Part shown: in pieces, positions 3,389 through 14,973 of the stretch
Layout: every line of letters starts with the position of its first letter
How positions within the stretch are numbered: position 1 is the stretch's first letter
NCBI GenBank assembly: GCA_015232405.1
Contig: JADFZS010000010.1
Span: 1,044 to 65,043, forward strand
Source: Magnetococcales bacterium
Lineage (GTDB): Bacteria; Pseudomonadota; Magnetococcia; Magnetococcales; JADFYX01
Length of the DNA: 64,000 bases
Direction: 5' to 3'
Notes under the pieces: generated by a model
The model's input: only the letters and a program-made list of their open reading frames with translations
Told to the model about the DNA's origin: nothing
Databases searched by the model: none
Translations under genes and position numbers: made by a program

Positions 3389-4693
3389 TTAGTTGACAAC
3401 GCTATCATTTTCACGATCATGATTTTCACATTGACTGATTCCGACGGGTCTGGATTGTTTTACTGGTTTGTTGTCTAAAGTTTGGAATGTAAACCCTTCT
3501 GGCCTCAACCATTTGATCATGTAATCTTTGTCTTTTATATCACCATTCTCCTGAAAAGATATTGGACCTGTAAGGCCCTGACAGGCATTCATAAAACGAA
3601 TTTCATCGGCAATTTTGCTAGACTCTGATGTGCCGATTTTTTGAATTGTCTTTAGCAAAATATTGATCGTGTCATACTCAATTGCTGCCAATCTGTCTGG
3701 TGGTTGACCAAATTCATTGCGGAATTTTTTTGCAAAAACAGAATTCTCTGGAAGCCGATAGTCGAACATTGTTGGAACAGCGACATTGGCAAATAATTTA
3801 CTCTCTTCTTGCCACTTTTTGATGTTATCCCAAAATACAATGGAATCCAAACCTTCGCCGCCAATGAATGGTATATCCTTGATCCCTCTCCCTCTAAATT
3901 CCTTAATGATTCTTTCTGCCATCGAAGTGCTGGTAAATAAAAATATAGCATCCACTGAATTTTTATTCTGTAACTCTCTTGTGTTCATAGCGTATGTGGT
4001 GAGTTCCCGCTGTGGGGTGCTAGTGAAAAAAGAGCGTTGGCTTGCTACTTTAATCTCATATTTCTCCGATGCAGCTTGGGAAAAAGCTTTACTTAGCTCA
4101 AGAGCATAATCACTACTTTCATTATAGATCACCACATTTTCATACTTGTTTTGATGTGCAAATCTTGCTAACTGATTGCCAAGTACCACATTAGTGGGAA
4201 GCATTCGGTAAAGATTGTTAAAATTCATGGTGGTGAGAATAACGTTGGTGGCGTTAGGAGTTATAAACAACATGTTACTCTGCTGGTAAATCAGTGAGGC
4301 TGAAAATGCCAATTCTGAAAAAGAGTGCCCTGTGACCGCCACCACCTGGCTGGAATGATTGGAAAAATCCCTGGCAACTGTGCGTGTGTACTCCTTGATA
4401 CTGTCTCCGGCAGTCAAAATGGAGGTGGTTTCCAATATCTTGAAAACTGCTTCTTCTCGCTCATCAATGATAAGTTCTATTTTCTGCCCCAATACTCCAC
4501 CGGACTTGTTGGCCTCTTTAACTGCCAATTTAGCCCCTTCAACGAACAATCCTCTACCTTGGGGCCATGCCACGCCAATGGTGATCGTACCATCTTCATG
4601 GTATTCTTTTTGATTCGAATTTAGATTGCACCCAGCAAGGTATAGAAGAGCCAAACAGAAATAGGTGATTTTCACAAATATATGGTTCAACAT
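3389..4693 (-). CDS. Periplasmic ligand-binding lipoprotein, type-1 PBP (Leu/Ile/Val-binding-like ABC substrate-binding family)
   Basis: Signal peptide with lipobox LAGC. Overall similarity pattern to the LivJ-type fold (GVAWPQ..., VVAVTGHSFS, IPFIGGEGLD). Confidence 0.65.
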   Translation of the reverse strand: MLNHIFVKITYFCLALLYLAGCNLNSNQKEYHEDGTITIGVAWPQGRGLFVEGAKLAVKEANKSGGVLGQKIELIIDEREEAVFKILETTSILTAGDSIKEYTRTVARDFSNHSSQVVAVTGHSFSELAFSASLIYQQSNMLFITPNATNVILTTMNFNNLYRMLPTNVVLGNQLARFAHQNKYENVVIYNESSDYALELSKAFSQAASEKYEIKVASQRSFFTSTPQRELTTYAMNTRELQNKNSVDAIFLFTSTSMAERIIKEFRGRGIKDIPFIGGEGLDSIVFWDNIKKWQEESKLFANVAVPTMFDYRLPENSVFAKKFRNEFGQPPDRLAAIEYDTINILLKTIQKIGTSESSKIADEIRFMNACQGLTGPISFQENGDIKDKDYMIKWLRPEGFTFQTLDNKPVKQSRPVGISQCENHDRENDSVVN

Positions 4694-5039: not shown

Positions 5040-5645
5040 ATGCTTATAAAAGGAGCACAATTTGTGGCTAAACTTGACGAAAAGCAATCAGACAACACTA
5101 ACGACGAAGAGAAATCTTCTAGCACTTCAAAACAGACTGCTCATGAAAAACGAAAAGAGCAGACAGCCGCAACAATTAAAAAATATACAGCTGGAGCAAT
5201 GGCAGTTGGGGTGGTTCCGTTTCCTCTCTTAGACTTGGCCGCTCTAGCAGCAATCCAACTCAAGATGCTACACAGTCTATCAAAAATCTATGATGTTGAA
5301 TTTGAAGCTAGCCTGGGCAAATCGGCTGTAAGTAGTTTGGCAGGCGGTGTCGCATCGGTATCTGGAGCCGCTCCACTAGCAGCCAGCCTGACCAAATTCA
5401 TCCCTGTTGTTGGTCATGCCTTATCATATACTTCTCTGGTTGTACTCAATGGAGCCAGCACATTTGCCATTGGTAAAGTGTTTGAACAACATTTCGCTTC
5501 AGGGGGTACATTCTTAACGTTTGATCCAACAAAAGTACGTGAATATTTTACAGAACAGTTTGAAAAAGGTAAAAAGCTCGTTACCGAAATGGGTGAAAAA
5601 TCTAAATCAAAACCTAAAATGGAACCAGCAACTGCAACCAAGTAA
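5040..5645 (+). CDS. DUF697 (YcjF-like) membrane-associated protein
   Basis: Ala/Gly-rich hydrophobic core (GAMAVGVVPFPLLDLAALAAIQLKMLHSLSKIY...) typical of DUF697. An alternative GTG start at 5064 sits behind an AAGGAG SD. Confidence 0.5.
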   Translation: MLIKGAQFVAKLDEKQSDNTNDEEKSSSTSKQTAHEKRKEQTAATIKKYTAGAMAVGVVPFPLLDLAALAAIQLKMLHSLSKIYDVEFEASLGKSAVSSLAGGVASVSGAAPLAASLTKFIPVVGHALSYTSLVVLNGASTFAIGKVFEQHFASGGTFLTFDPTKVREYFTEQFEKGKKLVTEMGEKSKSKPKMEPATATK

Positions 5646-5706: not shown

Positions 5707-5859
5707 ATGAAGAAAACATCTGAAAAGAAACCACCCGTTACTACCAGCACACCAAAATCGAGTACAACCAAGCGTCCTGGACTGTCCAAACGCACAAATA
5801 TCAAAGCAGGTGGCTTCTGGGAAGACCTTAAAGCGTTATATCCAAGCTTCTCCAAGTAA
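5707..5859 (+). CDS. Candidate 50-aa secreted-peptide precursor with internal Gly-Gly (not in the ORF track)
   Basis: Hand translation gives MKKTSEKKPPVTTSTPKSSTTKRPGLSKRTNIKAGG-FWEDLKALYPSFSK. It lies directly upstream of the HlyD-like/C39-ABC genes and is followed by a hairpin plus T-run. The SD is weak and the leader fits the canonical double-glycine consensus poorly. Confidence 0.35.
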   Translation: MKKTSEKKPPVTTSTPKSSTTKRPGLSKRTNIKAGGFWEDLKALYPSFSK

Positions 5860-5865
5860 TACACC

Positions 5866-5906
5866 CCCTCCCCCTTTTCTTACCCGATTAGGGGGCTTCT
5901 TTTTTA
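5866..5906 (+). terminator. Possible intrinsic terminator/attenuator after the small ORF
   Basis: CCCCC (5870-5874) pairs with GGGGG (5891-5895) and is followed by CTTCTTTTTT. The loop is large (16 nt). Confidence 0.35.
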
Positions 5907-6013
5907 ATACAGCTCAAAAGGATCTTTTTCTTCCAAGCCTTGGATTGGTCTGTATTTCTGTGTTCTTCATAAACAAATGTTTGCATGATAAACATTTAAC
6001 TTTTCATTAATCT

Positions 6014-6529
6014 ATGGCTATACCATTTTCGGAAACTACCAGATCACTGAATGCTGATAAAAATACCTTCATTTCGTTGTGGTTGGTATTTTCAGCACTG
6101 ATCTTGTTTTTATGGGGAGCATGGTTTTTTGCAGGTAGCATTTATCATTATGTTGGTAGCCAACGAGTTACCATTACCAAAGAGCCGCACCCAACTTGGC
6201 GCTTGGATGATAACAAAGGCTTGGTGAAGCCCTATCATCGTTACCTGGTAGAAACCCAATTTGATAAGGAGGATCTGTCACTTATTCATCCTGGTCAACG
6301 CATATCCATTCACACAGATAATAGTTCCGCCACTTCCCAGAGTCCTTATAGCAGTCTAATCGAGAAAGTTGACCAAAAATCAGGCTTGGTACAGACTATA
6401 TTGGAGATACCTGCTGATAAACCACCTCAACTAACAGGTTTATCCACACGAGCTGAGGTAACTGTTTCTCAGCAAACTCCAGCCGCCTTTATGTTTCACA
6501 TAGTATCTCGGGAAAACAAGAACCCGTGA
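6014..6529 (+). CDS. Short HlyD-family periplasmic adaptor-like protein (lacks the coiled-coil hairpin)
   Basis: N-terminal single TM (FISLWLVFSALILFLWGAWFF) and a C-terminal barrel-sandwich-like segment (HPGQRISIHTD...). At 171 aa it is much shorter than typical HlyD. Its TGA overlaps the GTG of the next gene. Confidence 0.55.
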   Translation: MAIPFSETTRSLNADKNTFISLWLVFSALILFLWGAWFFAGSIYHYVGSQRVTITKEPHPTWRLDDNKGLVKPYHRYLVETQFDKEDLSLIHPGQRISIHTDNSSATSQSPYSSLIEKVDQKSGLVQTILEIPADKPPQLTGLSTRAEVTVSQQTPAAFMFHIVSRENKNP

Positions 6530-9249
6530 ATGCTTCCGAACGTCGTTTTTTCATCCCAGAAGTTATCCAAAGCTCCATGATGGACTGTGGCCCTGCGGCT
6601 CTCAAAGCCATGCTGAATGGTTTTGATATACCAGTTAACTATGGTCGATTGCGAGAGGCATGTCAGACTGATGTGGATGGCACCTCAATTGATACCATGG
6701 AAGATTTGGCAATACAGTTAGGTCTGGATGCAGAGCAACTAATTACTCCGGTTGATCATGTATTAATCCCTGAGGCTAAAACTCTACCAGCATTAATCGT
6801 TGTAAAACGCCCCAATGGATCAACTCATTTTATAATAATCTGGCGATTGTTTTTGGGATGGGCACAGATTATGGACCCCTCAACTGGACGCCACTGGGTT
6901 CGTACTGAAACCTTATCCGATCGGTTTTATCAACATAGCCAAGCTGTCAGTACCATTGATTGGCTGGAGTGGGCATCTTCAGAGATGTTTATCAATGTTT
7001 TACGGGCACGTTTGCTAAATGTTTGTATAGACCCGGATTGGGCAGAAGCCTGTTTAAAAAAGTGCACAAATAATGAGAGCTGGTATCCTCTGGCTAGTTT
7101 GGATGCCGCTACACGCATGGTTACCTCTCTTATCAATGCTAAAGGTATTAAGCCTGGAAAAGAGGCAGGGGAGCTTATCAACCGTTTTTTTCTCAATCCT
7201 GAGGAAATCCCCAAAGGTTATTGGTCCGTTCATGCCTTACCAGAAGATGAGGATACCCTCTTATTCAAAGGAGCCGTTATAATACACAGTACGGGCCTGG
7301 CCGAACCTGTTATTGCAGAAAGATACATTGAATCTATAGATAAACAGAATGCTGAAGAAGAAAAAGAAAAAACAGCCTCACCCTACTCACCTGAATTATC
7401 TGCAGCTATGAATGAAGAGGTTTCTCACCCAGAACGCCACATTTTATCAGCTATGCGAGAAGATGGCTTTTTTACCCCAACCATACTTATAATTTGTGCG
7501 ATATTGGCTGGTGTTGGAATTACTCTTGAAGTTCTTGTGTTACGTAATTTGATGGAGATCAATCAACAAACCCAACTCATGTCACAACAGTTGCAAACCT
7601 TTGGGCTGGTTATTCTATTTTTCATATCTTTATTGATACTTGAGTGGCCTTTAGCACTGCTATCCCGCCAAGCAGGTAAATATCTAGAAGTTCGCTTACG
7701 ATTGCGCTTTCTAAAAAAACTGCCACACCTCGAAGACCGTTATTTCCATAGCCGCTTAACTTCGGACATGATCCAGCGTGCTTACGATTTACGTGAAATA
7801 TCTAATCTTCCAAATTTGGGGGTCAATTTTTTACGTATACTGGCGCAAATTATCCTTATCACCATAGGGTTGACAGTGATCTACCCAGAAGGTACAGGCC
7901 GAGTTATTTTCAGTTGTGCAGTCGTTATTTTATTAGCTTTCTTGTCCCAACCATGGTTACAAGAAAAAGATATGCAGTTTCGGACACATGTGGGAAGCCT
8001 CAGTCGTTTTTATTTGGATGCATTACTGGGTATTGTTCCTATTCGGAGTCATGGTGCTACACAAGCAATTCAAACACAACATGAACGATTATTACTTGAT
8101 TGGTTCCGAACTGGACGAGATTTTTTTAGAACTTTTGAATACATCTCACTGTTAAATTTTTTAATCAGTACCGGACTGTCCATATGGCTAGTTCACTCTT
8201 ATTTAAATATTGATAGGGATAGCAGTGTAACTTTGGTATTGCTGTATTGGTTGCTCCAACTTCCACAACTGGGAAACCAGTTAGCTGAAAGCACCCAACA
8301 GTATCCAACATTGCGTAATCGTCTTTTGCGACTTCTAGAACCACTTTCTGCACCCGATGAAAGTCACTCTTGGTACTCCGCCGATCAGCACCGCCCAACC
8401 AATGTAGTATCTCCTGGAGAAAGTAAAGAAAAGAAACTTGGAGTTAGCATCAATTTTCACCAAGTTAACCTGATATTATCAGGCCGAGAGATTTTGCAAG
8501 ATCTGAATGTCAATTTGGCTTCTGGAGAACATGTAGCGATAGTGGGAAAATCAGGAGCTGGAAAATCCAGCTTAGTGGGATTGTTGTTAGGATGGCATCG
8601 ACCTGCTACTGGCGGTACTGTTTGGGTGGATGGTGAATTACTCCACGGATCACGCCTGGAACAGTTACGTCAAGAGTCCGTGTGGGTAGATCCTGAAGTA
8701 CAATTATGGAACCGATCGTTAGCGGACAATATTAACTATGGAAAAGAGAAAGGTAGCGACATCTCAGCCGAAATTTGGAGTCAGTCAGAACTTTTAGATA
8801 TGCTCCAATTCTTACCTGATGGTGATCAAACTATATTGGGTGAAAATGCAGGGCTACTTTCTGGTGGTGAGGGGCAACGGGTACGGTTGGGTCGTGGATT
8901 AAATAGGAACAACGCACGATTGGTTATCCTTGACGAACCATTTCGAGGCTTGACCCGCCACCAACGAAGCCAGTTATTAGGTAAAATTCGTCTCTTTTGG
9001 CAGAATGTTACTCTATTATTTATTAGCCATGATGTATCAGATACAAAAGGTTTTGATCGTACATGGGTAGTTCATGAAGGTCGTTTGGTTGAAGATGCAC
9101 CACCACATGAGTTAGCTGCTAATCCAAACTCTCATTATTCACAATTATTGGAAGCTGAACAAAGTCTACATAAATTAATTTGGAATCGTATTGACTGGAC
9201 AAAGTTATACCTGGAAAATGGTCAATTAACAGTTAGTTCAAAACGATAA
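6526..9249 (+). CDS. ABC exporter with N-terminal C39 cysteine peptidase domain (bacteriocin/peptide-processing type)
   Basis: C39 catalytic region MMDCGPAALKAML and GSTHFIIIW. Walker A GKSGAGKSSL, signature LSGGEGQRVRL and Walker B LVILDEPF. Six-TM region between residues ~310 and 600. Confidence 0.85.
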   Translation: MNASERRFFIPEVIQSSMMDCGPAALKAMLNGFDIPVNYGRLREACQTDVDGTSIDTMEDLAIQLGLDAEQLITPVDHVLIPEAKTLPALIVVKRPNGSTHFIIIWRLFLGWAQIMDPSTGRHWVRTETLSDRFYQHSQAVSTIDWLEWASSEMFINVLRARLLNVCIDPDWAEACLKKCTNNESWYPLASLDAATRMVTSLINAKGIKPGKEAGELINRFFLNPEEIPKGYWSVHALPEDEDTLLFKGAVIIHSTGLAEPVIAERYIESIDKQNAEEEKEKTASPYSPELSAAMNEEVSHPERHILSAMREDGFFTPTILIICAILAGVGITLEVLVLRNLMEINQQTQLMSQQLQTFGLVILFFISLLILEWPLALLSRQAGKYLEVRLRLRFLKKLPHLEDRYFHSRLTSDMIQRAYDLREISNLPNLGVNFLRILAQIILITIGLTVIYPEGTGRVIFSCAVVILLAFLSQPWLQEKDMQFRTHVGSLSRFYLDALLGIVPIRSHGATQAIQTQHERLLLDWFRTGRDFFRTFEYISLLNFLISTGLSIWLVHSYLNIDRDSSVTLVLLYWLLQLPQLGNQLAESTQQYPTLRNRLLRLLEPLSAPDESHSWYSADQHRPTNVVSPGESKEKKLGVSINFHQVNLILSGREILQDLNVNLASGEHVAIVGKSGAGKSSLVGLLLGWHRPATGGTVWVDGELLHGSRLEQLRQESVWVDPEVQLWNRSLADNINYGKEKGSDISAEIWSQSELLDMLQFLPDGDQTILGENAGLLSGGEGQRVRLGRGLNRNNARLVILDEPFRGLTRHQRSQLLGKIRLFWQNVTLLFISHDVSDTKGFDRTWVVHEGRLVEDAPPHELAANPNSHYSQLLEAEQSLHKLIWNRIDWTKLYLENGQLTVSSKR

Positions 9250-9341
9250 TTTTTTTTATATTATTAATAGCTATAAGGCGCTATCTTTTTTCTGCCTCTG
9301 TATATGAAAGATAATATTGCCCCATCAATTAGATTACCTCT

Positions 9342-11462
9342 ATGTCTGTAACTCAACTGACTTGGCCACACTCACGCCTACATGATGCTCTACCATTGTT
9401 AGCTAGACATGTTGGGTTTTCATCTGCTATCACCCCCCCTACTGCTTTATCTGAAGATGACCATTCTGCGGAAACCATCCACCATTGGTTAGAAAATACA
9501 GCTACTTGGATGGGTGTGGAATTTCTGGCAGTGGGAACAACATATCCAGAGTTAGAAACCATGTTGGCTCACGCTGGACCCGCAATAATTGAAATTCCAG
9601 TGAGAGAAGGTCGTGGTTTTCTTCTGCTTATTTCTGGAAATCGTCGCCGACTTACCCTGCTAGGAGAAGATGGCAAAAAACATAAGGTTCTACTTAAAGA
9701 AGTCCGAGAGCTCCTCACCAACCATCTGGAAGCTCCCCTCAGGCCAGCCATGGAAAAAATGGTTCAAGAGTTGGATATTCCTGAACATCGCCGAGAAAAA
9801 ATATTTCAATCACTGTTAAGTGAGCAACTTAGCAGTGTACATATTGGTCGCTCTTTTTGGCTGTTACGCTTATCACCAGCAGATGATTTTTGGAAACAAC
9901 TTCGTCATGCCGGATTTGTAAGAAAAGCAGCTGTTATTTTCACCAGCACGATAGCTTTTCAATTGCTCATATTATTATCCTGGGCAGTGATTGGTAAATC
10001 TATAATTTATAGCAATAGTTTTAGCGGTGCCACTGAAATATGGTCGCTACTATTATTGACAGCCATCCCCCTTCAAGTATTCAGCATTTATAAGAAAAAT
10101 CAGATTTCTCTAGATTTTGGTGCTCATCTACGCAATCGATTGTTAGATGGCATTCTCCAGCTCAAATCAGAAGAGGTTCGCCACCAGGGTAGTGGGCACT
10201 TTCTTGGCTACATAATGGACATTGAGATATTGGAGGGACAAAGCCTGACTATGGTGTTTGCCTCTCTCATCTCATTTATTCAAATCCTATCAGCCATTAT
10301 CATCCTGATGCTGGGGGCCGGGGGCTTGTTGCATGGAATGCTGTTATTGGGTTATTTTATCTTTCTTCTCTATATATCCTATAAGTTCTACCTTGGTTCC
10401 GGGCAACAATTGGCTCATTACCGTAAAATGAGCTGTGATCTGGCAGAACGCATGATTGGACATCGTACTCGACTTTCACAGGATAATCCAAAGTATCGCC
10501 ATACCGAAGAAGATGCTCTATTGGCTCGTTATATACCACTGAGCAAACGGCAAATGAAATTCATCGCCTTTATGGAAGGTGTCGGTCGACGTGGATGGCT
10601 TCTACTCTCTATAATAGCTCTTCTTCCAGAACTTACTTCGGCTCAACCTGATATTGGCTCGTTGGCCATAAGCTTAGGCGGCACTCTTTTGGCTGCCACT
10701 GCTCTCAACCAGTTTGTAATAAGCCTCCGTAATATTTTACGGGCATCACAAGCCTGGAAACAGCTGACCCCCTTATACCACAGCTCAACTAGACGACGAT
10801 ATCAAAAACCACCTCCTTTCATCCCTGACGCTCAAATTGATCACTTGGCAAAGTCAAACTCATTGATTCAAGGAGAAAAGCTAGAGTTTTCTTATTACAA
10901 TCGCACAATTTTAAACCGCTGTTCTCTAAAAGTTGAAAGAGGTCAACGTCTACTGTTGGAAGGTCCCTCTGGAGGTGGAAAATCTACTTTAGCCGCACTT
11001 TTAGCCGGTTTACGCCAGCCAAAAAATGGAACAGTGTCACTATTTGGCCTTAACTGGGAGCAATTGGGAGAAAAAGCCTGGAGACAACGGGTAGTGATCA
11101 CTCCTCAATTCCATGAAAACCATGTCATTACCGACACATTTGCCTTTAACCTGCTCATGGGTCGCCCCTGGCCACCATCAAGACAAGATTTGCTAGAAGC
11201 TAGAACTATTTGCCAGGAACTAGATTTAGGCGACCTCTTGGAAAAAATGCCTGCAGGAATGGAACAAATGGTTGGAGAGTCTGGCTGGAGACTCTCTCAT
11301 GGTGAACGTAGCCGTCTATATATTGCTAGAACCTTACTGCAAAAAGCTGATTTGATCATCCTTGATGAGAGTTTTGCTGCCCTTGATCCAAAAACCTTGA
11401 AAATTGCCCTCGATTGCGTTTTGCGTAGAAGTAAGACACTATTGCTCATCACACACCCATGA
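9342..11462 (+). CDS. ABC exporter, permease/ATPase fusion with Cys-less N-terminal (C39-like?) domain
   Basis: Walker A GPSGGGKSTL, signature variant LSHGERSRL and Walker B LIILDESFAALD. The ~170-aa N-terminal cytoplasmic domain has no catalytic Cys. Confidence 0.8.
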   Translation: MSVTQLTWPHSRLHDALPLLARHVGFSSAITPPTALSEDDHSAETIHHWLENTATWMGVEFLAVGTTYPELETMLAHAGPAIIEIPVREGRGFLLLISGNRRRLTLLGEDGKKHKVLLKEVRELLTNHLEAPLRPAMEKMVQELDIPEHRREKIFQSLLSEQLSSVHIGRSFWLLRLSPADDFWKQLRHAGFVRKAAVIFTSTIAFQLLILLSWAVIGKSIIYSNSFSGATEIWSLLLLTAIPLQVFSIYKKNQISLDFGAHLRNRLLDGILQLKSEEVRHQGSGHFLGYIMDIEILEGQSLTMVFASLISFIQILSAIIILMLGAGGLLHGMLLLGYFIFLLYISYKFYLGSGQQLAHYRKMSCDLAERMIGHRTRLSQDNPKYRHTEEDALLARYIPLSKRQMKFIAFMEGVGRRGWLLLSIIALLPELTSAQPDIGSLAISLGGTLLAATALNQFVISLRNILRASQAWKQLTPLYHSSTRRRYQKPPPFIPDAQIDHLAKSNSLIQGEKLEFSYYNRTILNRCSLKVERGQRLLLEGPSGGGKSTLAALLAGLRQPKNGTVSLFGLNWEQLGEKAWRQRVVITPQFHENHVITDTFAFNLLMGRPWPPSRQDLLEARTICQELDLGDLLEKMPAGMEQMVGESGWRLSHGERSRLYIARTLLQKADLIILDESFAALDPKTLKIALDCVLRRSKTLLLITHP

Positions 11463-11475
11463 GGAAAACCGATAA

Positions 11476-12417
11476 ATGAACAATATAAACAACTCTTCAT
11501 CAGGCCAAAACAGCACTATTCCTCAACCAAAACCCCATCGTGGTATATTAAAACGTATACGTGAAATGCTCTGGGATAAATTGCCCTATTTTATATTATT
11601 TGGCTTTCTTATCACTCTGACGACAATCTTCCTTTGGAATCGTATAGTTATCTTTGTCGAAGCCGGAGAAGGCGGTGTTCTTTACCGACCTCTATTGGGA
11701 GAGGGTGTCATAACCGACCGGGTTTATTCTGAAGGAATGTATATTCTCTTTCCTGTTAATACTCTGACACGTTACAACACAAGGGTGCAAATTCTCCGTA
11801 CTGAATTTGATGTTCTTACCAACCGCGGCCTCCCAGTCACATTGAAATTGGCTATACGTTACCGGCCTATTTTTGAGCTTCTAGGTGTACTCCATCAACG
11901 AGTAGGTCCCAACTACCCCAATAAAATTATTATTCCACAAATTGAATCTGTATTGCGTAAAGGATTGGGGAAACATTCACCAGAAGAAATATATACAAAC
12001 AAAGGTTTATTGCTAAGTAAGTTGATTGCGCAAGCTATTGAGGAGGTAGGACGAAAATATGTAATCGTTGACGACATAATTATTCGTAGCGTTAGCCTTC
12101 CTCATGAAGTTAAGAGAGCCATTGAAAAAAAACTAATTGAAGAACAACGTTTCCTCTCCTACACCTTCCGTTTACAGACAGAAATAAAAGAGGCTGAACG
12201 CAAACGTATTGAGTCAAAAGGAATCAGGGACTTTTCTGAAAATTTGAAAGCCAGTGTGACTGCCAATGTGTTGCGCTGGAAAGGAATTGATGCAACACTC
12301 AAACTAGCTTCATCACCAAATTCCAAAATAGTCATCATAGGTGGGCAAAAAGATGGTATGCCATTGATGCTCAATGCAGGTAATTGGTCTGATTTAACTC
12401 AAAAACCCCAACAATAA
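11476..12417 (+). CDS. SPFH/Band-7 (prohibitin/HflC-like) membrane protein
   Basis: N-terminal TM followed by an SPFH-like core (VEAGEGGVLYRP..., ...QIESVLRKGLG..., EAERKRIESKGI). It starts 13 bp after the ABC gene stop. Confidence 0.75.
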   Translation: MNNINNSSSGQNSTIPQPKPHRGILKRIREMLWDKLPYFILFGFLITLTTIFLWNRIVIFVEAGEGGVLYRPLLGEGVITDRVYSEGMYILFPVNTLTRYNTRVQILRTEFDVLTNRGLPVTLKLAIRYRPIFELLGVLHQRVGPNYPNKIIIPQIESVLRKGLGKHSPEEIYTNKGLLLSKLIAQAIEEVGRKYVIVDDIIIRSVSLPHEVKRAIEKKLIEEQRFLSYTFRLQTEIKEAERKRIESKGIRDFSENLKASVTANVLRWKGIDATLKLASSPNSKIVIIGGQKDGMPLMLNAGNWSDLTQKPQQ

Positions 12418-12501
12418 ATATTTTTTAATATTTTTTATACTATCAAACGATTAAAATATCAGCTTAACCAATCTCAACGGCATATGAGGATTAAAAATTA
12501 A

Positions 12502-12666
12502 ATGCACACTTCCATTTTAATAATACTGTTTGCCAGCTTGATTGTTGGCTATCTTGGCCGTCATCGAAAAATGGGGTTTTGGGGATATTTTTTTGGTTCC
12601 ATACTATTAACGCCATTTGTCGGATTAATTCTATTAGCTGCATCCGGGCCGAAACAAAAGGATTAA
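12502..12666 (+). CDS. Small (54 aa) two-TM membrane protein, hypothetical (not in the ORF track)
   Basis: Hand translation gives MHTSILIILFASLIVGYLGRHRKMGFWGYFFGSILLTPFVGLILLAASGPKQKD, i.e. two hydrophobic helices separated by a basic loop. Confidence 0.4.
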   Translation: MHTSILIILFASLIVGYLGRHRKMGFWGYFFGSILLTPFVGLILLAASGPKQKD

Positions 12667-12962
12667 TACAGGTAGGAGTTTAGAGAACCACATAGTTCAA
12701 ACCATGTAATAGTTTCTTCATCCTAAAGCCAAATTCAACTTGAAGGAGGATAGGATGGACAAAAAGAGAAGATCTACCGTTAATTTGTATCCAAACAAGC
12801 AAGCTCCATCAAACAGTTGCCAATATATGTTGAGTGTGACTTCATGAAGCGAGTGGTCCCAGAACTTCCAGATACTGCAGTCTAATTGGTTACATTTCTA
12901 TTATGTAATATATGCAGGTAAATATAAAAACATATTGTAAATACATATACATGGACGCATAA

Positions 12963-13076
12963 TCATACTTAACTATTAACAGTTATAGAGATAATGCCAT
13001 GAATGAGATCTCTGACCTAACTGTTAATGAAAAGAGACTTCTGATGGCAATGGTAGCGAGGTGGGATGATGAGTAA
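12963..13076 (+). pseudogene. 3' remnant of a RelE/HigB2-like (COG4737-type) toxin gene
   Basis: The frame reads SYLTINSYRDNAMNEISDLTVNEKRLLMAMVARWDDE*, resembling the C-terminal ...YLLxIYxKxxxxDLTxxEkxxL tail of these toxins. A stop codon lies immediately upstream (12960). It overlaps the antitoxin start by 11 nt, as in intact TA pairs. Confidence 0.4.
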
Positions 13077-13389
13077 AAAACGCAATTTGTTTGATGAACT
13101 GAGTCAGTCTATTGATGAAGCACAACAGTTCGATTCTGGCAAAATCACTCTTAAGACAACTAAAGTCGAAGCACAACCACCATTGCATATTGATGCTAAG
13201 ACTGTTCTGGAAACCAGAGAGTCTCTCCATTTATCCAGAGGGGTTTTTGCTCGTTGGTTAAGGGTCTCTCCCAGAACATTGGAAAACTGGGAACAAGGAA
13301 GATCTAGACCCAATTCTCAAGCTGCAGCTTTGATCCTTATGATACGTAAATTTCCTGATACCGTAGATCGGTTAGCTGTTTTATCATAG
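13066..13389 (+). CDS. HTH (XRE-type) antitoxin-like regulator, COG2944/HigA2/NadS-like
   Basis: The C-terminal HTH LSRGVFARWLRVSPRTLENWEQGRSRPNSQAAALI contains the WEQGRxxP signature of this family. Size is 107 aa. Confidence 0.75.
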   Translation: MMSKKRNLFDELSQSIDEAQQFDSGKITLKTTKVEAQPPLHIDAKTVLETRESLHLSRGVFARWLRVSPRTLENWEQGRSRPNSQAAALILMIRKFPDTVDRLAVLS

Positions 13390-13644
13390 TTTCATACTTA
13401 GTTGGTTGCTCTACATAAACTTTCAAGCATTTACATCATGTTAGAAAAATCTCTATTTTTTTAGATATCTTCACATTTCTCATACTTTTCTATTTTCGAT
13501 ACCTACACGACACAACTAGAATTATTTAAATTGGTCTAGTATCATGAAAAAGTTGTATTAGCTTTCTTGTGGTTCCAGCAAACCCCAAGACATGCTTGCT
13601 AATATTTCTACCATATAAGCATGTAAAACCAACCAAGGAGCCTC

Positions 13645-14973
13645 ATGAATTCAACAGTCAAAGGTAACAAGCTCGAAAATGAAATATTTAATCTATTTTC
13701 TAAAATGATCTTGGAAAATAGATTTTTATGGCTAAAAAGTGAATGCTGTCAGATTCGAAGAAAACATGGGTACTATTCAAAAGATAGAGAAAAAAATATC
13801 ATATTCGATATTTCAGTTGAGATAACCCTACCAGGACAAGACAAATATTCACAACTAATCCTAATTGAGTGTAAAAATTACGAGCGCAAAGTTGAGTTTA
13901 GCGACGTACAAAACTTCCATTCAGTAACTCAGCAAGTTGCTTCATCAAACTCAAAATCAATTATCGTTTCAACTAATGCTTTTAATGATGGAGCTTTTAA
14001 ATTTGCAAAATCAAAAGGAATAGGGTTACTTCGCTACTTTTACTCTGATGAGCTACAATGGGTACTTGCTCGATCACCTTCTAGTATGAATCCATTGCTT
14101 TCATTTGATACTGACTATTTAAATTCTTCCTCCCATGTAATGTGCCAACAAGATATTAAAAGCAAATACTTTGATTGCCACGGATACTCATACGGTAAAT
14201 ATACAACATCATTGAACGAATTTCTGTATCGATTAGTAAATGTAGGAGCAAGTGAGAACTTTAAAAAACATTTTACCAATGTCGAAGATAAATTAAAGTC
14301 AAAGACTCGGTTAGTGCCATTCATAGCAAACAAAAAAATTGAGGCAATAAGTCAAAAAATTTTACAAAATGTCAGTTATACTAAAGGCCCTACCCCACTG
14401 GATAAAATTTGCAAAAAATTATCCGAAGATACTGGTCTAGAATTGCTACAAAACACAACCCTTGCTAAAGGCGCATTAGGGAGCATCTCGTTTGATCCAA
14501 TTGTAATCAAGTTAGCTGAGGCCCATGCAGAGGATGAGTATAGGGCGAGGTTTACTTTAGCTCATGAAATTGGTCATTTAATTCTAGAACATGGTAAGTA
14601 CATGAAAAAAGAACTGTGTCATGAATCAGATTTGGACATAGAAAATCCACGATTGATCGGAATTCAAGATATTGAACGGATGGAATGGCAAGCAAACTAT
14701 TTTGCTTCGTACCTCCTTCTACCTGAAAAACAGTTGAAGGAGTCATTTTATTTATTGGTTAAAAAGTATTCCTTGATTAATCGTGGACATGGTGTGCTTT
14801 ACGTTGACAATCAAAAATGCAACAAGGACACATATTATGGCATTACAAATCGATTAAAAAAAGAGTTTAAAACTTCTCGTAGTGCATTTCAGATACGTCT
14901 CAGGAATCTTGGGCTTCTTACCGATTTTGCGTCAATGAACTACAAACTCTCAGGACACTCATTTAATTCTTGA
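13645..14973 (+). CDS. Fusion protein: N-terminal PD-(D/E)xK (Mrr-like) nuclease domain and C-terminal ImmA/IrrE (M78) zinc metallopeptidase domain
   Basis: N-terminal D...ExK pattern (IFDISVE...LILIECKNY). C-terminal HExxH (LAHEIGHLILEH) followed by WQANYFASYLLLP, typical of ImmA/IrrE. Strong SD AAGGAG. AT-rich codon usage. Confidence 0.7.
   Translation: MNSTVKGNKLENEIFNLFSKMILENRFLWLKSECCQIRRKHGYYSKDREKNIIFDISVEITLPGQDKYSQLILIECKNYERKVEFSDVQNFHSVTQQVASSNSKSIIVSTNAFNDGAFKFAKSKGIGLLRYFYSDELQWVLARSPSSMNPLLSFDTDYLNSSSHVMCQQDIKSKYFDCHGYSYGKYTTSLNEFLYRLVNVGASENFKKHFTNVEDKLKSKTRLVPFIANKKIEAISQKILQNVSYTKGPTPLDKICKKLSEDTGLELLQNTTLAKGALGSISFDPIVIKLAEAHAEDEYRARFTLAHEIGHLILEHGKYMKKELCHESDLDIENPRLIGIQDIERMEWQANYFASYLLLPEKQLKESFYLLVKKYSLINRGHGVLYVDNQKCNKDTYYGITNRLKKEFKTSRSAFQIRLRNLGLLTDFASMNYKLSGHSFNS

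Follow-up and report, generated by a model that had tools for sequence, protein, structure and literature searches.

A conserved small gene beside a C39-peptidase ABC exporter suggests an undescribed peptide family with an unusual putative export tag

Introduction

The closest described relatives of the system considered here are double-glycine leader peptides and the peptidase-containing ATP-binding cassette (ABC) transporters (PCATs) that handle them. In Gram-negative bacteria, RaxX of Xanthomonas oryzae is made as a 60-aa precursor, the 39-aa leader of which is cut after Gly-Gly, and is exported by the PCAT RaxB (10.1101/442517). Hence, Gram-negative PCATs do process long-leader precursors of ~60 aa into short secreted peptides. 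HetC of Nostoc PCC 7120 is a further Gram-negative PCAT and is thought to export an as yet unidentified signalling peptide (PMC10986499). Here, we compare with these systems a locus in a 64,000-nucleotide stretch of the metagenome-assembled genome (MAG) of a Magnetococcales bacterium (contig JADFZS010000010.1, positions 1,044 to 65,043; hereafter the window), in which an open reading frame (ORF) of 50 codons at 5707-5859 lies close to a C39-peptidase ABC exporter.

The ORF is a real conserved gene under protein-level selection. Its product is probably a dedicated substrate precursor of the exporter: the C39 domain would recognise a conserved box and cut after G35, and the core would be exported by the pair formed by the C39-peptidase half-transporter (C39-ABC) and a second ABC half-transporter (ABC2). 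The first-pass annotation of the window had likewise proposed the ORF as the leader-bearing substrate of a C39 ABC system. Comparative evidence supports this proposal, and from it we infer the cleavage, the exact position of the cut, the export, the destination and any biological role of the peptide. The ORF belongs to an undescribed peptide family that reaches from magnetotactic cocci to cable bacteria and carries K-T-N-I-K-A-G as an unusual putative export tag.

A Conserved Gene Under Protein-Level Selection

The gene and the element that follows it are located as follows.

5707..5859, + strand: precursor peptide gene, 50 aa plus stop, probably without annotation in the source MAG
5870..5905, + strand: terminator-like hairpin CCCCCT/AGGGGG, then CTTCTTTTTT (5896-5905), found by folding

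The 5707-5859 (+) product, as translated from the window, is MKKTSEKKPPVTTSTPKSSTTKRPGLSKRTNIKAGGFWEDLKALYPSFSK and contains G35-G36, so that the earlier translation with its internal Gly-Gly was exact. Its start codon is the first ATG behind an in-frame stop, which directly precedes it, and the ORF lies in the 368 nt that separate a DUF697 gene (5040-5645) from a gene of 171 codons (6014-6529). A length of 50 codons alone is not beyond chance because, within or reaching into the first 16 kb of the window, there are 131 ORFs of 30 aa or more. The Shine-Dalgarno (SD) sequence is AGG, 9 nt 5' of the start, and thus as weak as the first-pass annotation had remarked; orthologues of the peptide have GAGGA, GGAGG or GAGG.

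Orthologues of 44-68 aa share one syntenic slot in eight independent loci, namely the window, Magnetococcales HHB-1 (L034), Ca. Electrothrix aestuarii (L037), an uncharacterised genome assembly (L038) and the metagenome loci L035, L039, L041 and L042. In the seven loci other than the window, the ORF in this slot has 44-58 aa. The slot lies directly after the DUF697 gene, at a distance of 16-87 nt in all eight loci, and beside genes for a periplasmic-binding-protein (PBP) lipoprotein, a short HlyD-like protein, C39-ABC, the second ABC protein and an SPFH protein. The small ORF is thus kept beside orthologous exporters in syntenic loci, a point that the first-pass annotation had left for comparison. 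Orthologues come from Magnetococcales, Mariprofundaceae, Ca. Electrothrix and metagenomes and hence from two phyla and three classes (Magnetococcia, Mariprofundia and Desulfobulbia).

A profile built from six orthologues matched 21 clusters in a database of 5.8 billion proteins, every one of them named 'hypothetical protein' and several of them on the same contigs as exporter matches. As a single query, the 50-mer had zero matches in the same database, including no exact copy, because no three 5-residue words are shared, while the orthologue profile obtained from synteny succeeded. The C39-ABC of the same MAG is present in this database (P0001, 100% identical, 'MAG: Magnetococcales bacterium'). 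The 50-aa gene, which is missing although its neighbour is present, is therefore probably unannotated in the MAG. It is also uncalled in Ca. Electrothrix aestuarii, and automated annotation seems to have overlooked the gene in both genomes. None of these peptides matches a family in Pfam or NCBIfam up to E=10.

Nucleotide identity among the orthologues is 0.67, 0.85 and 0.39 at the first, second and third codon position, respectively, with the third position being the least conserved. The differing codon pairs comprise 46 synonymous and 45 non-synonymous pairs. The identity per codon position is a coding signature for this frame and therefore indicates selection on the protein.

The hairpin behind the gene has a stem of six G-C-rich pairs (5870-5875/5890-5895) and a 14-nt loop, with a folding energy (dG) of -13.4 kcal/mol and a z-score (z) between -1.6 and -2.6, according to which stretch is folded. 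A terminator consensus scan missed it because the loop limit of the scan is 8 nt. An equivalent is kept in one of the five orthologous loci tested, that of Ca. Electrothrix aestuarii (dG -29.8, z -4.5); upon folding, it was absent or weak after the peptide gene in L034, L035, L038 and L039. In L039, the next gene begins 10 nt after the peptide gene. The simplest role for the hairpin would be to close a DUF697-peptide transcription unit in genomes where the following gene has another orientation or is not tightly packed. With DUF697 a short distance ahead of it everywhere, the peptide gene more likely comes second in this unit than forms a solitary, highly expressed transcript. The hairpin and T-run described in the first-pass annotation, which had likened them to those of highly expressed precursor genes, are present. 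Promoter-like sites are not in excess (6 versus 5.0 in shuffles), and the window has zero matches in Rfam.

The Precursor and Its Predicted Cleavage Site

Alignments and modeling suggest the following division of the 50-mer.

5707..5811, + strand: predicted leader, aa 1-35, with a Lys/Ser/Thr/Pro-rich N-terminus and then the conserved box (alignments, AlphaFold 2)
5779..5811, + strand: putative export/cleavage box of 11 residues, G25-L-S-K-R-T-N-I-K-A-G35 (alignment of 22 orthologues)
5812..5856, + strand: predicted core or mature peptide GFWEDLKALYPSFSK, 15 aa, or 14 aa if cut after G36 (cross-phylum conservation)

The precursor would thus have three parts, a disordered Lys-rich N-terminus, the box and the core. 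In the AlphaFold 2 model of the 50-mer, residues 1-36 are disordered and without secondary structure, and a short helix spans residues 37-44 with low confidence. The consensus of the box is G-h-x-x-[KRQ]-[ST]-x-[IVL]-K-[AVG]-G and that of the core is [GD]FWED[LM][KR]xLY. For example, KTNIKAG precedes DFWEDLRSLYPDFLNKQ in HHB-1 and RSQVKAG precedes GFWEDMRALYGMK in Electrothrix. The core has a length of 13-17 aa in 19 of the 22 orthologues and is near-invariant across Magnetococcia, Mariprofundia and Desulfobulbia, and the leader-like part is conserved too. A first MAFFT alignment that included Pseudoalteromonas peptides paired LKAL of the window with LKAG; this register was rejected once more sequences had been added, the true one being TNIKAG = TGLKAG.

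Without exception, the 22 orthologues have G at -11, K at -3 and, corresponding to window G35, G at -1; at -4, they vary only among I, V and L. The residue at -2 (window residue 34) is A in 17, V in three and G in two orthologues. The first-pass annotation had placed the cleavage at the Gly-Gly, the position of which would then be conserved. However, window residue 36 is G in only 15 of the 22 orthologues and D in three, S in two and N in two of them; of 185 box copies in the wider family, 54% are followed by G. These counts point to Ala-Gly as the conserved pair and not to Gly-Gly as the conserved element. A cut after G35 is favoured because a K-A-G site exists in every member. This family-consistent cut predicts the 15-mer GFWEDLKALYPSFSK rather than the 14-residue peptide initially envisaged. 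Members that contain Gly-Gly may alternatively be cut after G36, with FWEDLKALYPSFSK (14 aa) as the predicted product. That the leader fits the hydrophobic -4/-7/-12 pattern poorly had been noted correctly and is a property of the whole family, in which hydrophobic residues occur at -8 and -10 instead of -7/-12. The predicted leader is accordingly non-canonical and of a basic class, K-[ST]-x-h-K-A-G.

The Same Box Precedes Unrelated Cores

Further loci were fetched solely by homology to the N-terminus of C39-ABC, with 35-52% identity for matches that cover the greater part of the query. In ten of them (L001, L012, L014, L016, L017, L018, L023, L024, L033 and L040), small ORFs bear the box before unrelated cores. 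MNVKTQIKAG, for instance, is followed by NGGDSIVWGN, and MNVKTNVKAG, which represents the shortest leaders of ~10 aa, by RLAANHNTIVR. In Pseudoalteromonas amylolytica, ...VKTGLKAG precedes NPGAR and ...IKSGLKAA precedes YTGGGY. L014 has four box-bearing peptide genes and includes Cys-rich 40-mers carrying the box. The tandem precursors of L012 contain VKSNVKAG every ~23 residues and an NHNQ motif after each copy. The box occurs both directly after the start Met in ORFs of 20-28 aa and in tandem repeats beside exporter homologues that are without DUF697.

The loci of exporter homologues, 196 kb in total, contain 32 instances of the box in its strict form compared to 0.44 expected from shuffles, an enrichment that is partly post hoc as the motif was derived from the sequences in which it was counted. 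In the 64-kb window, the strict form occurs once, in the 50-aa ORF (0.14 expected), and long ORFs amounting to 85,000 aa do not contain it at all. When 1.84 billion representative proteins were searched exhaustively with a profile, 67 matches were obtained, mostly short proteins with 1-5 tandem box copies, and NHN-type cores are found in 52 of the 80 short proteins pooled from both peptide profile searches. Because the box is N-terminal or repeated, co-occurs with one exporter clade and stands before arbitrary cores, we read it as a leader or export signal and, more specifically, as the putative recognition and cleavage tag of this transporter clade. Literature searches with the motif strings, the cassette domain combination and cable-bacteria PCATs yielded nothing relevant.

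Two groups of box peptides are worth recording in their own right. Short proteins encoded in L012 (39-1807, - strand) and the database matches P0141 and P0143-P0203 consist of 2-5 tandem GL+VK[ST]N[VI]KAG(G) units, each followed by ~10-15 residues with NHN[QE]T. They look like multi-core precursors in which this tag would be reused, and neither a curated family nor literature on them was found. In L001 (Pseudoalteromonas amylolytica JW1; 8858-9267 and 11854-14571), two pairs of box peptides with the tiny predicted cores NPGAR and YTGGGY/YGGGGY lie downstream of the same cassette, and one pair is directly 5' of a 744-aa asparagine-synthase-like gene, a possible modifying enzyme.

The Exporter Cassette and Its Neighbours

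The peptide gene is surrounded in the window by the following genes.

3389..4693, - strand: PBP lipoprotein (ANF_receptor/Peripla_BP_6 in Pfam; LAGC lipobox)
5040..5645, + strand: DUF697 membrane protein, always directly upstream of the peptide gene (Pfam DUF697 E=5e-13; NCBIfam slr1306/TIGR01620)
6014..6529, + strand: short HlyD-like adaptor, 171 aa, single-pass, of which only the N-terminal 63 aa align with the homologous 390-aa HlyD_3 proteins that take this place in the operons of other loci
6526..9249, + strand: C39-peptidase ABC half-transporter, 907 aa (Peptidase_C39 E=2e-16, ABC_membrane, ABC_tran)
9342..11462, + strand: ABC2, second ABC half-transporter, 706 aa, no peptidase, presumed heterodimer partner
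11476..12417, + strand: SPFH/Band-7 protein (Pfam Band_7 E=1e-23)
12502..12666, + strand: 54-aa hydrophobic small protein MHTSILIILFASLIVGYLGRHRKMGFWGYFFGSILLTPFVGLILLAASGPKQKD after the SPFH gene, with homologues in L034 (14573-14737) and L035 (2749-2916)

Together with the 50-aa ORF, which stands between the DUF697 gene and that of the 171-aa protein, these genes seem to form a conserved eight-gene cassette. The first-pass annotation had rightly seen a C39-peptidase ABC exporter nearby, but placed the ORF immediately upstream of it. The C39-ABC gene begins 667 nt from the ORF, and the gene of the HlyD-like protein intervenes. The residues Q15, C21, H101 and D117 of C39-ABC do not vary in three homologues and, in the alignment with PCAT1 (4RY2), fall on its catalytic residues. 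A conserved insert of ~180 aa (aa ~140-320) separates the peptidase from the membrane domain. The top 120 relatives of C39-ABC share 44-61% identity with it and belong to Magnetococcales, Zetaproteobacteria, cable bacteria, Beggiatoa-like and Thiomargarita bacteria, Desulfonema, Chloroflexota and Pseudoalteromonas. ABC2 adjoins C39-ABC in L001, L006, L007, L017, L020-L022, L028, L029, L034, L037, L039 and L040; its N-terminal ~200 aa (9342-10040) have no match in Pfam or the PDB.

For the 171-aa protein, Pfam gives no match and Foldseek gives weak ones (best E=9e-3). Its AlphaFold 2 model (pLDDT 68) comprises a transmembrane helix (10-42) and a beta-rich domain and has no long helical hairpin. 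Thus, the adaptor is a truncated HlyD relative and not a full HlyD-family membrane fusion protein. The PBP of the window is 53% identical to that of the Pseudoalteromonas cassette, and the PBPs of the orthologous loci adjoin the peptide and the exporter, with TSP_3 repeats in six of six loci and an OmpA domain in all but L034. The SPFH gene is kept after ABC2 in L001, L034, L035 and L037-L040. Genes of 52-56 aa have been called at the same place as that of the 54-aa protein in L038, L039 and L040, and the latter appears to be another small conserved cassette member.

Downstream of the cassette in the window, a small helix-turn-helix (NadS/MqsA-like) protein (13066-13389, + strand) is followed by a 442-aa Mrr_cat + Peptidase_M78 (ImmA/IrrE) fusion (13645-14973, + strand), which together may be a defence or toxin-antitoxin-like pair. 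In the Electrothrix-type loci L037 (16291-19632) and L039 (15215-18532), the Band-7 gene is followed by a gene for a ~1100-aa protein that joins a Reg_prop/Y_Y_Y sensor to a guanylate/adenylate cyclase domain. A polyphosphate kinase 1 gene precedes DUF697 in L037, L039 and L042. A sulfotransferase gene lies beside the cassette in L038 (460-1506) and a glutaminyl-cyclase-like gene beside the peptide in L041 (1762-3009); either product could be a lineage-specific peptide-modifying enzyme. In the metagenome loci L014 (69-2246) and L009 (2412-4559), genes for large BTAD/NB-ARC-type transcriptional activators are found directly upstream of the short adaptor and C39-ABC.

Possible Mode of Action and Alternative Explanations

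If the 50-aa protein is the substrate of this exporter, the box would dock in the cysteine-protease (C39) domain of C39-ABC, in which Q15/C21/H101/D117 are intact. The protease would cut after the invariant Gly35, and the C39-ABC/ABC2 pair together with the short HlyD-like single-pass protein would move the 15-residue core across the inner membrane. The long helical hairpin of an adaptor normally reaches TolC. Delivery to the periplasm or envelope is suggested because the adaptor model is without such a hairpin and a PBP lipoprotein is conserved (with OmpA in relatives). The peptide may thus act in the periplasm or cell envelope.

Some observations weigh against this assignment. The classical hydrophobic pattern is not kept at -7/-12, as a cut after G35 puts R/K/Q at -7 and mostly K at -12. 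The box is basic, and position -2 is Ala (Val in three orthologues) rather than Gly. The box is therefore unlike classical double-glycine leaders, which makes its recognition by the C39 domain an extrapolation. Furthermore, the peptide gene is tied more tightly to DUF697 than to the exporter, which in L041 is even located on the opposite strand ~2 kb away. The enrichment of the box has the partly post hoc character mentioned above, and for the repeat-type peptides the direction from peptide to exporter is uninformative where the contig ends.

A more far-reaching and, taken as a whole, unlikely version of the substrate assignment is that the 15-residue peptide is cut, pumped solely into the periplasm by a TolC-independent PCAT with a truncated adaptor and bound there by the PBP lipoprotein, the cassette being a conserved peptide-receptor module of the Gram-negative envelope. 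DUF697 and SPFH would then organise the membrane site. The TSP3 repeats of the PBP in relatives are of the calcium-binding type and the OmpA domain is of the peptidoglycan-binding type. The filaments of cable bacteria share a periplasm, and the near-identical core in Magnetococcales and cable bacteria would in such a module be a candidate for a signal between cells or of the state of the envelope. The export tag would also define a large undescribed superfamily of tandem-repeat box-NHNxT precursors.

The first-pass annotation had favoured a ComC/CSP-type precursor, which would make the product a quorum-sensing pheromone, that is, a secreted 14-15-mer sensed by a cognate two-component system and coordinating population behaviour. 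The short core, a PCAT beside the peptide gene and the terminator-like hairpin after the gene in the window and in L037 would fit such a role. However, neither the cassette nor its direct neighbours encode a histidine kinase or response regulator, whether in the window or in the loci L034-L042, no Pfam/NCBIfam model, that of ComC included, matches up to E=10, and the sole conserved candidate binder is the PBP lipoprotein. Moreover, peptide pheromones typically diversify by pherotype, and a core that is almost invariant across three classes is the opposite of such diversification. We thus consider a pheromone quite improbable. The prospects of a small unmodified bacteriocin or microcin, for which the upstream DUF697 membrane protein would provide immunity, are equally slim. 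The peptide gene always adjoins the membrane-protein gene and is probably co-transcribed with it, as in toxin-immunity pairs, microcins and class II peptides classically leave the cell through a PCAT, and the box peptides elsewhere have hypervariable cores, some of them Cys-rich (L014). Yet a near-neutral core of 15 aa is far shorter than known class II microcins. The core is also kept across phyla instead of being strain-specific, the PBP, the SPFH protein and the 54-aa protein of the cassette have no known role in bacteriocin systems, and DUF697 is broadly distributed and has no described immunity function.

The tight linkage to DUF697, with the gap sizes given above in eight of eight loci and the exporter of L041 on the opposite strand, would be accounted for if the product were an uncleaved small basic protein that works with DUF697 in the cell or at the membrane. 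The proximity of the exporter would then reflect a shared envelope function and not a substrate relation. Conservation of both the leader-like part and the core, and a box that is not a canonical Gly-Gly leader, are consistent with such a protein as well. What makes it very unlikely are the box-bearing ORFs of 20-28 aa and the tandem repeats beside exporter homologues without DUF697, which fit a portable tag and are otherwise hard to explain. Finally, a chance ORF in an intergenic spacer has next to no probability: such lengths are common in DNA of 40% GC, the SD is weak and there is no exact database copy, but the 21 homologous clusters, the synteny in eight loci and the coding-type conservation of codon positions refute it.

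Implications

If the 50-mer is indeed a C39-processed precursor, the rules for finding PCAT substrates would have to be extended by a non-canonical leader, K-[ST]-x-h-K-A-G, since current rules would miss such substrates. A substrate would be assigned to a widespread orphan transporter clade. A short peptide that is conserved across phyla together with a binding-protein lipoprotein would be unusual among exported bacterial peptides, and conservation over this range would suggest a housekeeping or signalling role rather than one in warfare.

Comparison With Known Peptide Export Systems

The likeness to the double-glycine/PCAT systems (ComC-ComA, colicin V-CvaB and CtA-PCAT1) lies in a small precursor paired with an ABC transporter that has a Gln/Cys/His/Asp C39 domain. 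As in double-glycine leaders, the leader of the window family ends in small residues and is hydrophobic at -4. Unlike these leaders, its box is basic ([KR]-[ST]-x-h-K-A-G) and not acidic amphipathic, has Ala/Val at -2 and is not hydrophobic at -7/-12. In contrast to these systems, the leaders vary from 10 to ~45 aa, and the transporter of the window is a two-gene pair (C39-ABC and ABC2) with an insert of ~180 aa after the peptidase and a truncated adaptor of ~170 aa.

The best-matching named PCAT-type models are those of the NHLP/Nif11 export system (TIGR03796, TIGR03797 and HlyD-family), which resembles the cassette in combining a HlyD-like gene, a C39-ABC and a peptidase-less ABC protein. 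However, C39-ABC of the window scores 145.7 bits against a cut-off of 853.3 bits (TIGR03796) and ABC2 scores 105.7 against 709.4 (TIGR03797). According to Pfam and NCBIfam, the NHLP/Nif11 domain is absent from the precursors of the window family. HetC was rejected as a relative, as it has an N-terminal cyclic-nucleotide-binding domain (PMC10986499), which C39-ABC of the window is without.

RaxX differs from the 50-mer in its canonical -4/-7/-12 pattern, in tyrosine sulfation by RaxST and in being exported with a full adaptor and TolC (10.1101/442517). The window encodes no sulfotransferase, and the 50-mer is without sequence similarity to RaxX. The shared features of RaxX-RaxB/RaxA and the system described here are the Gram-negative host, the long leader and a cut at a glycine motif, which in the precursor of the window is predicted only.

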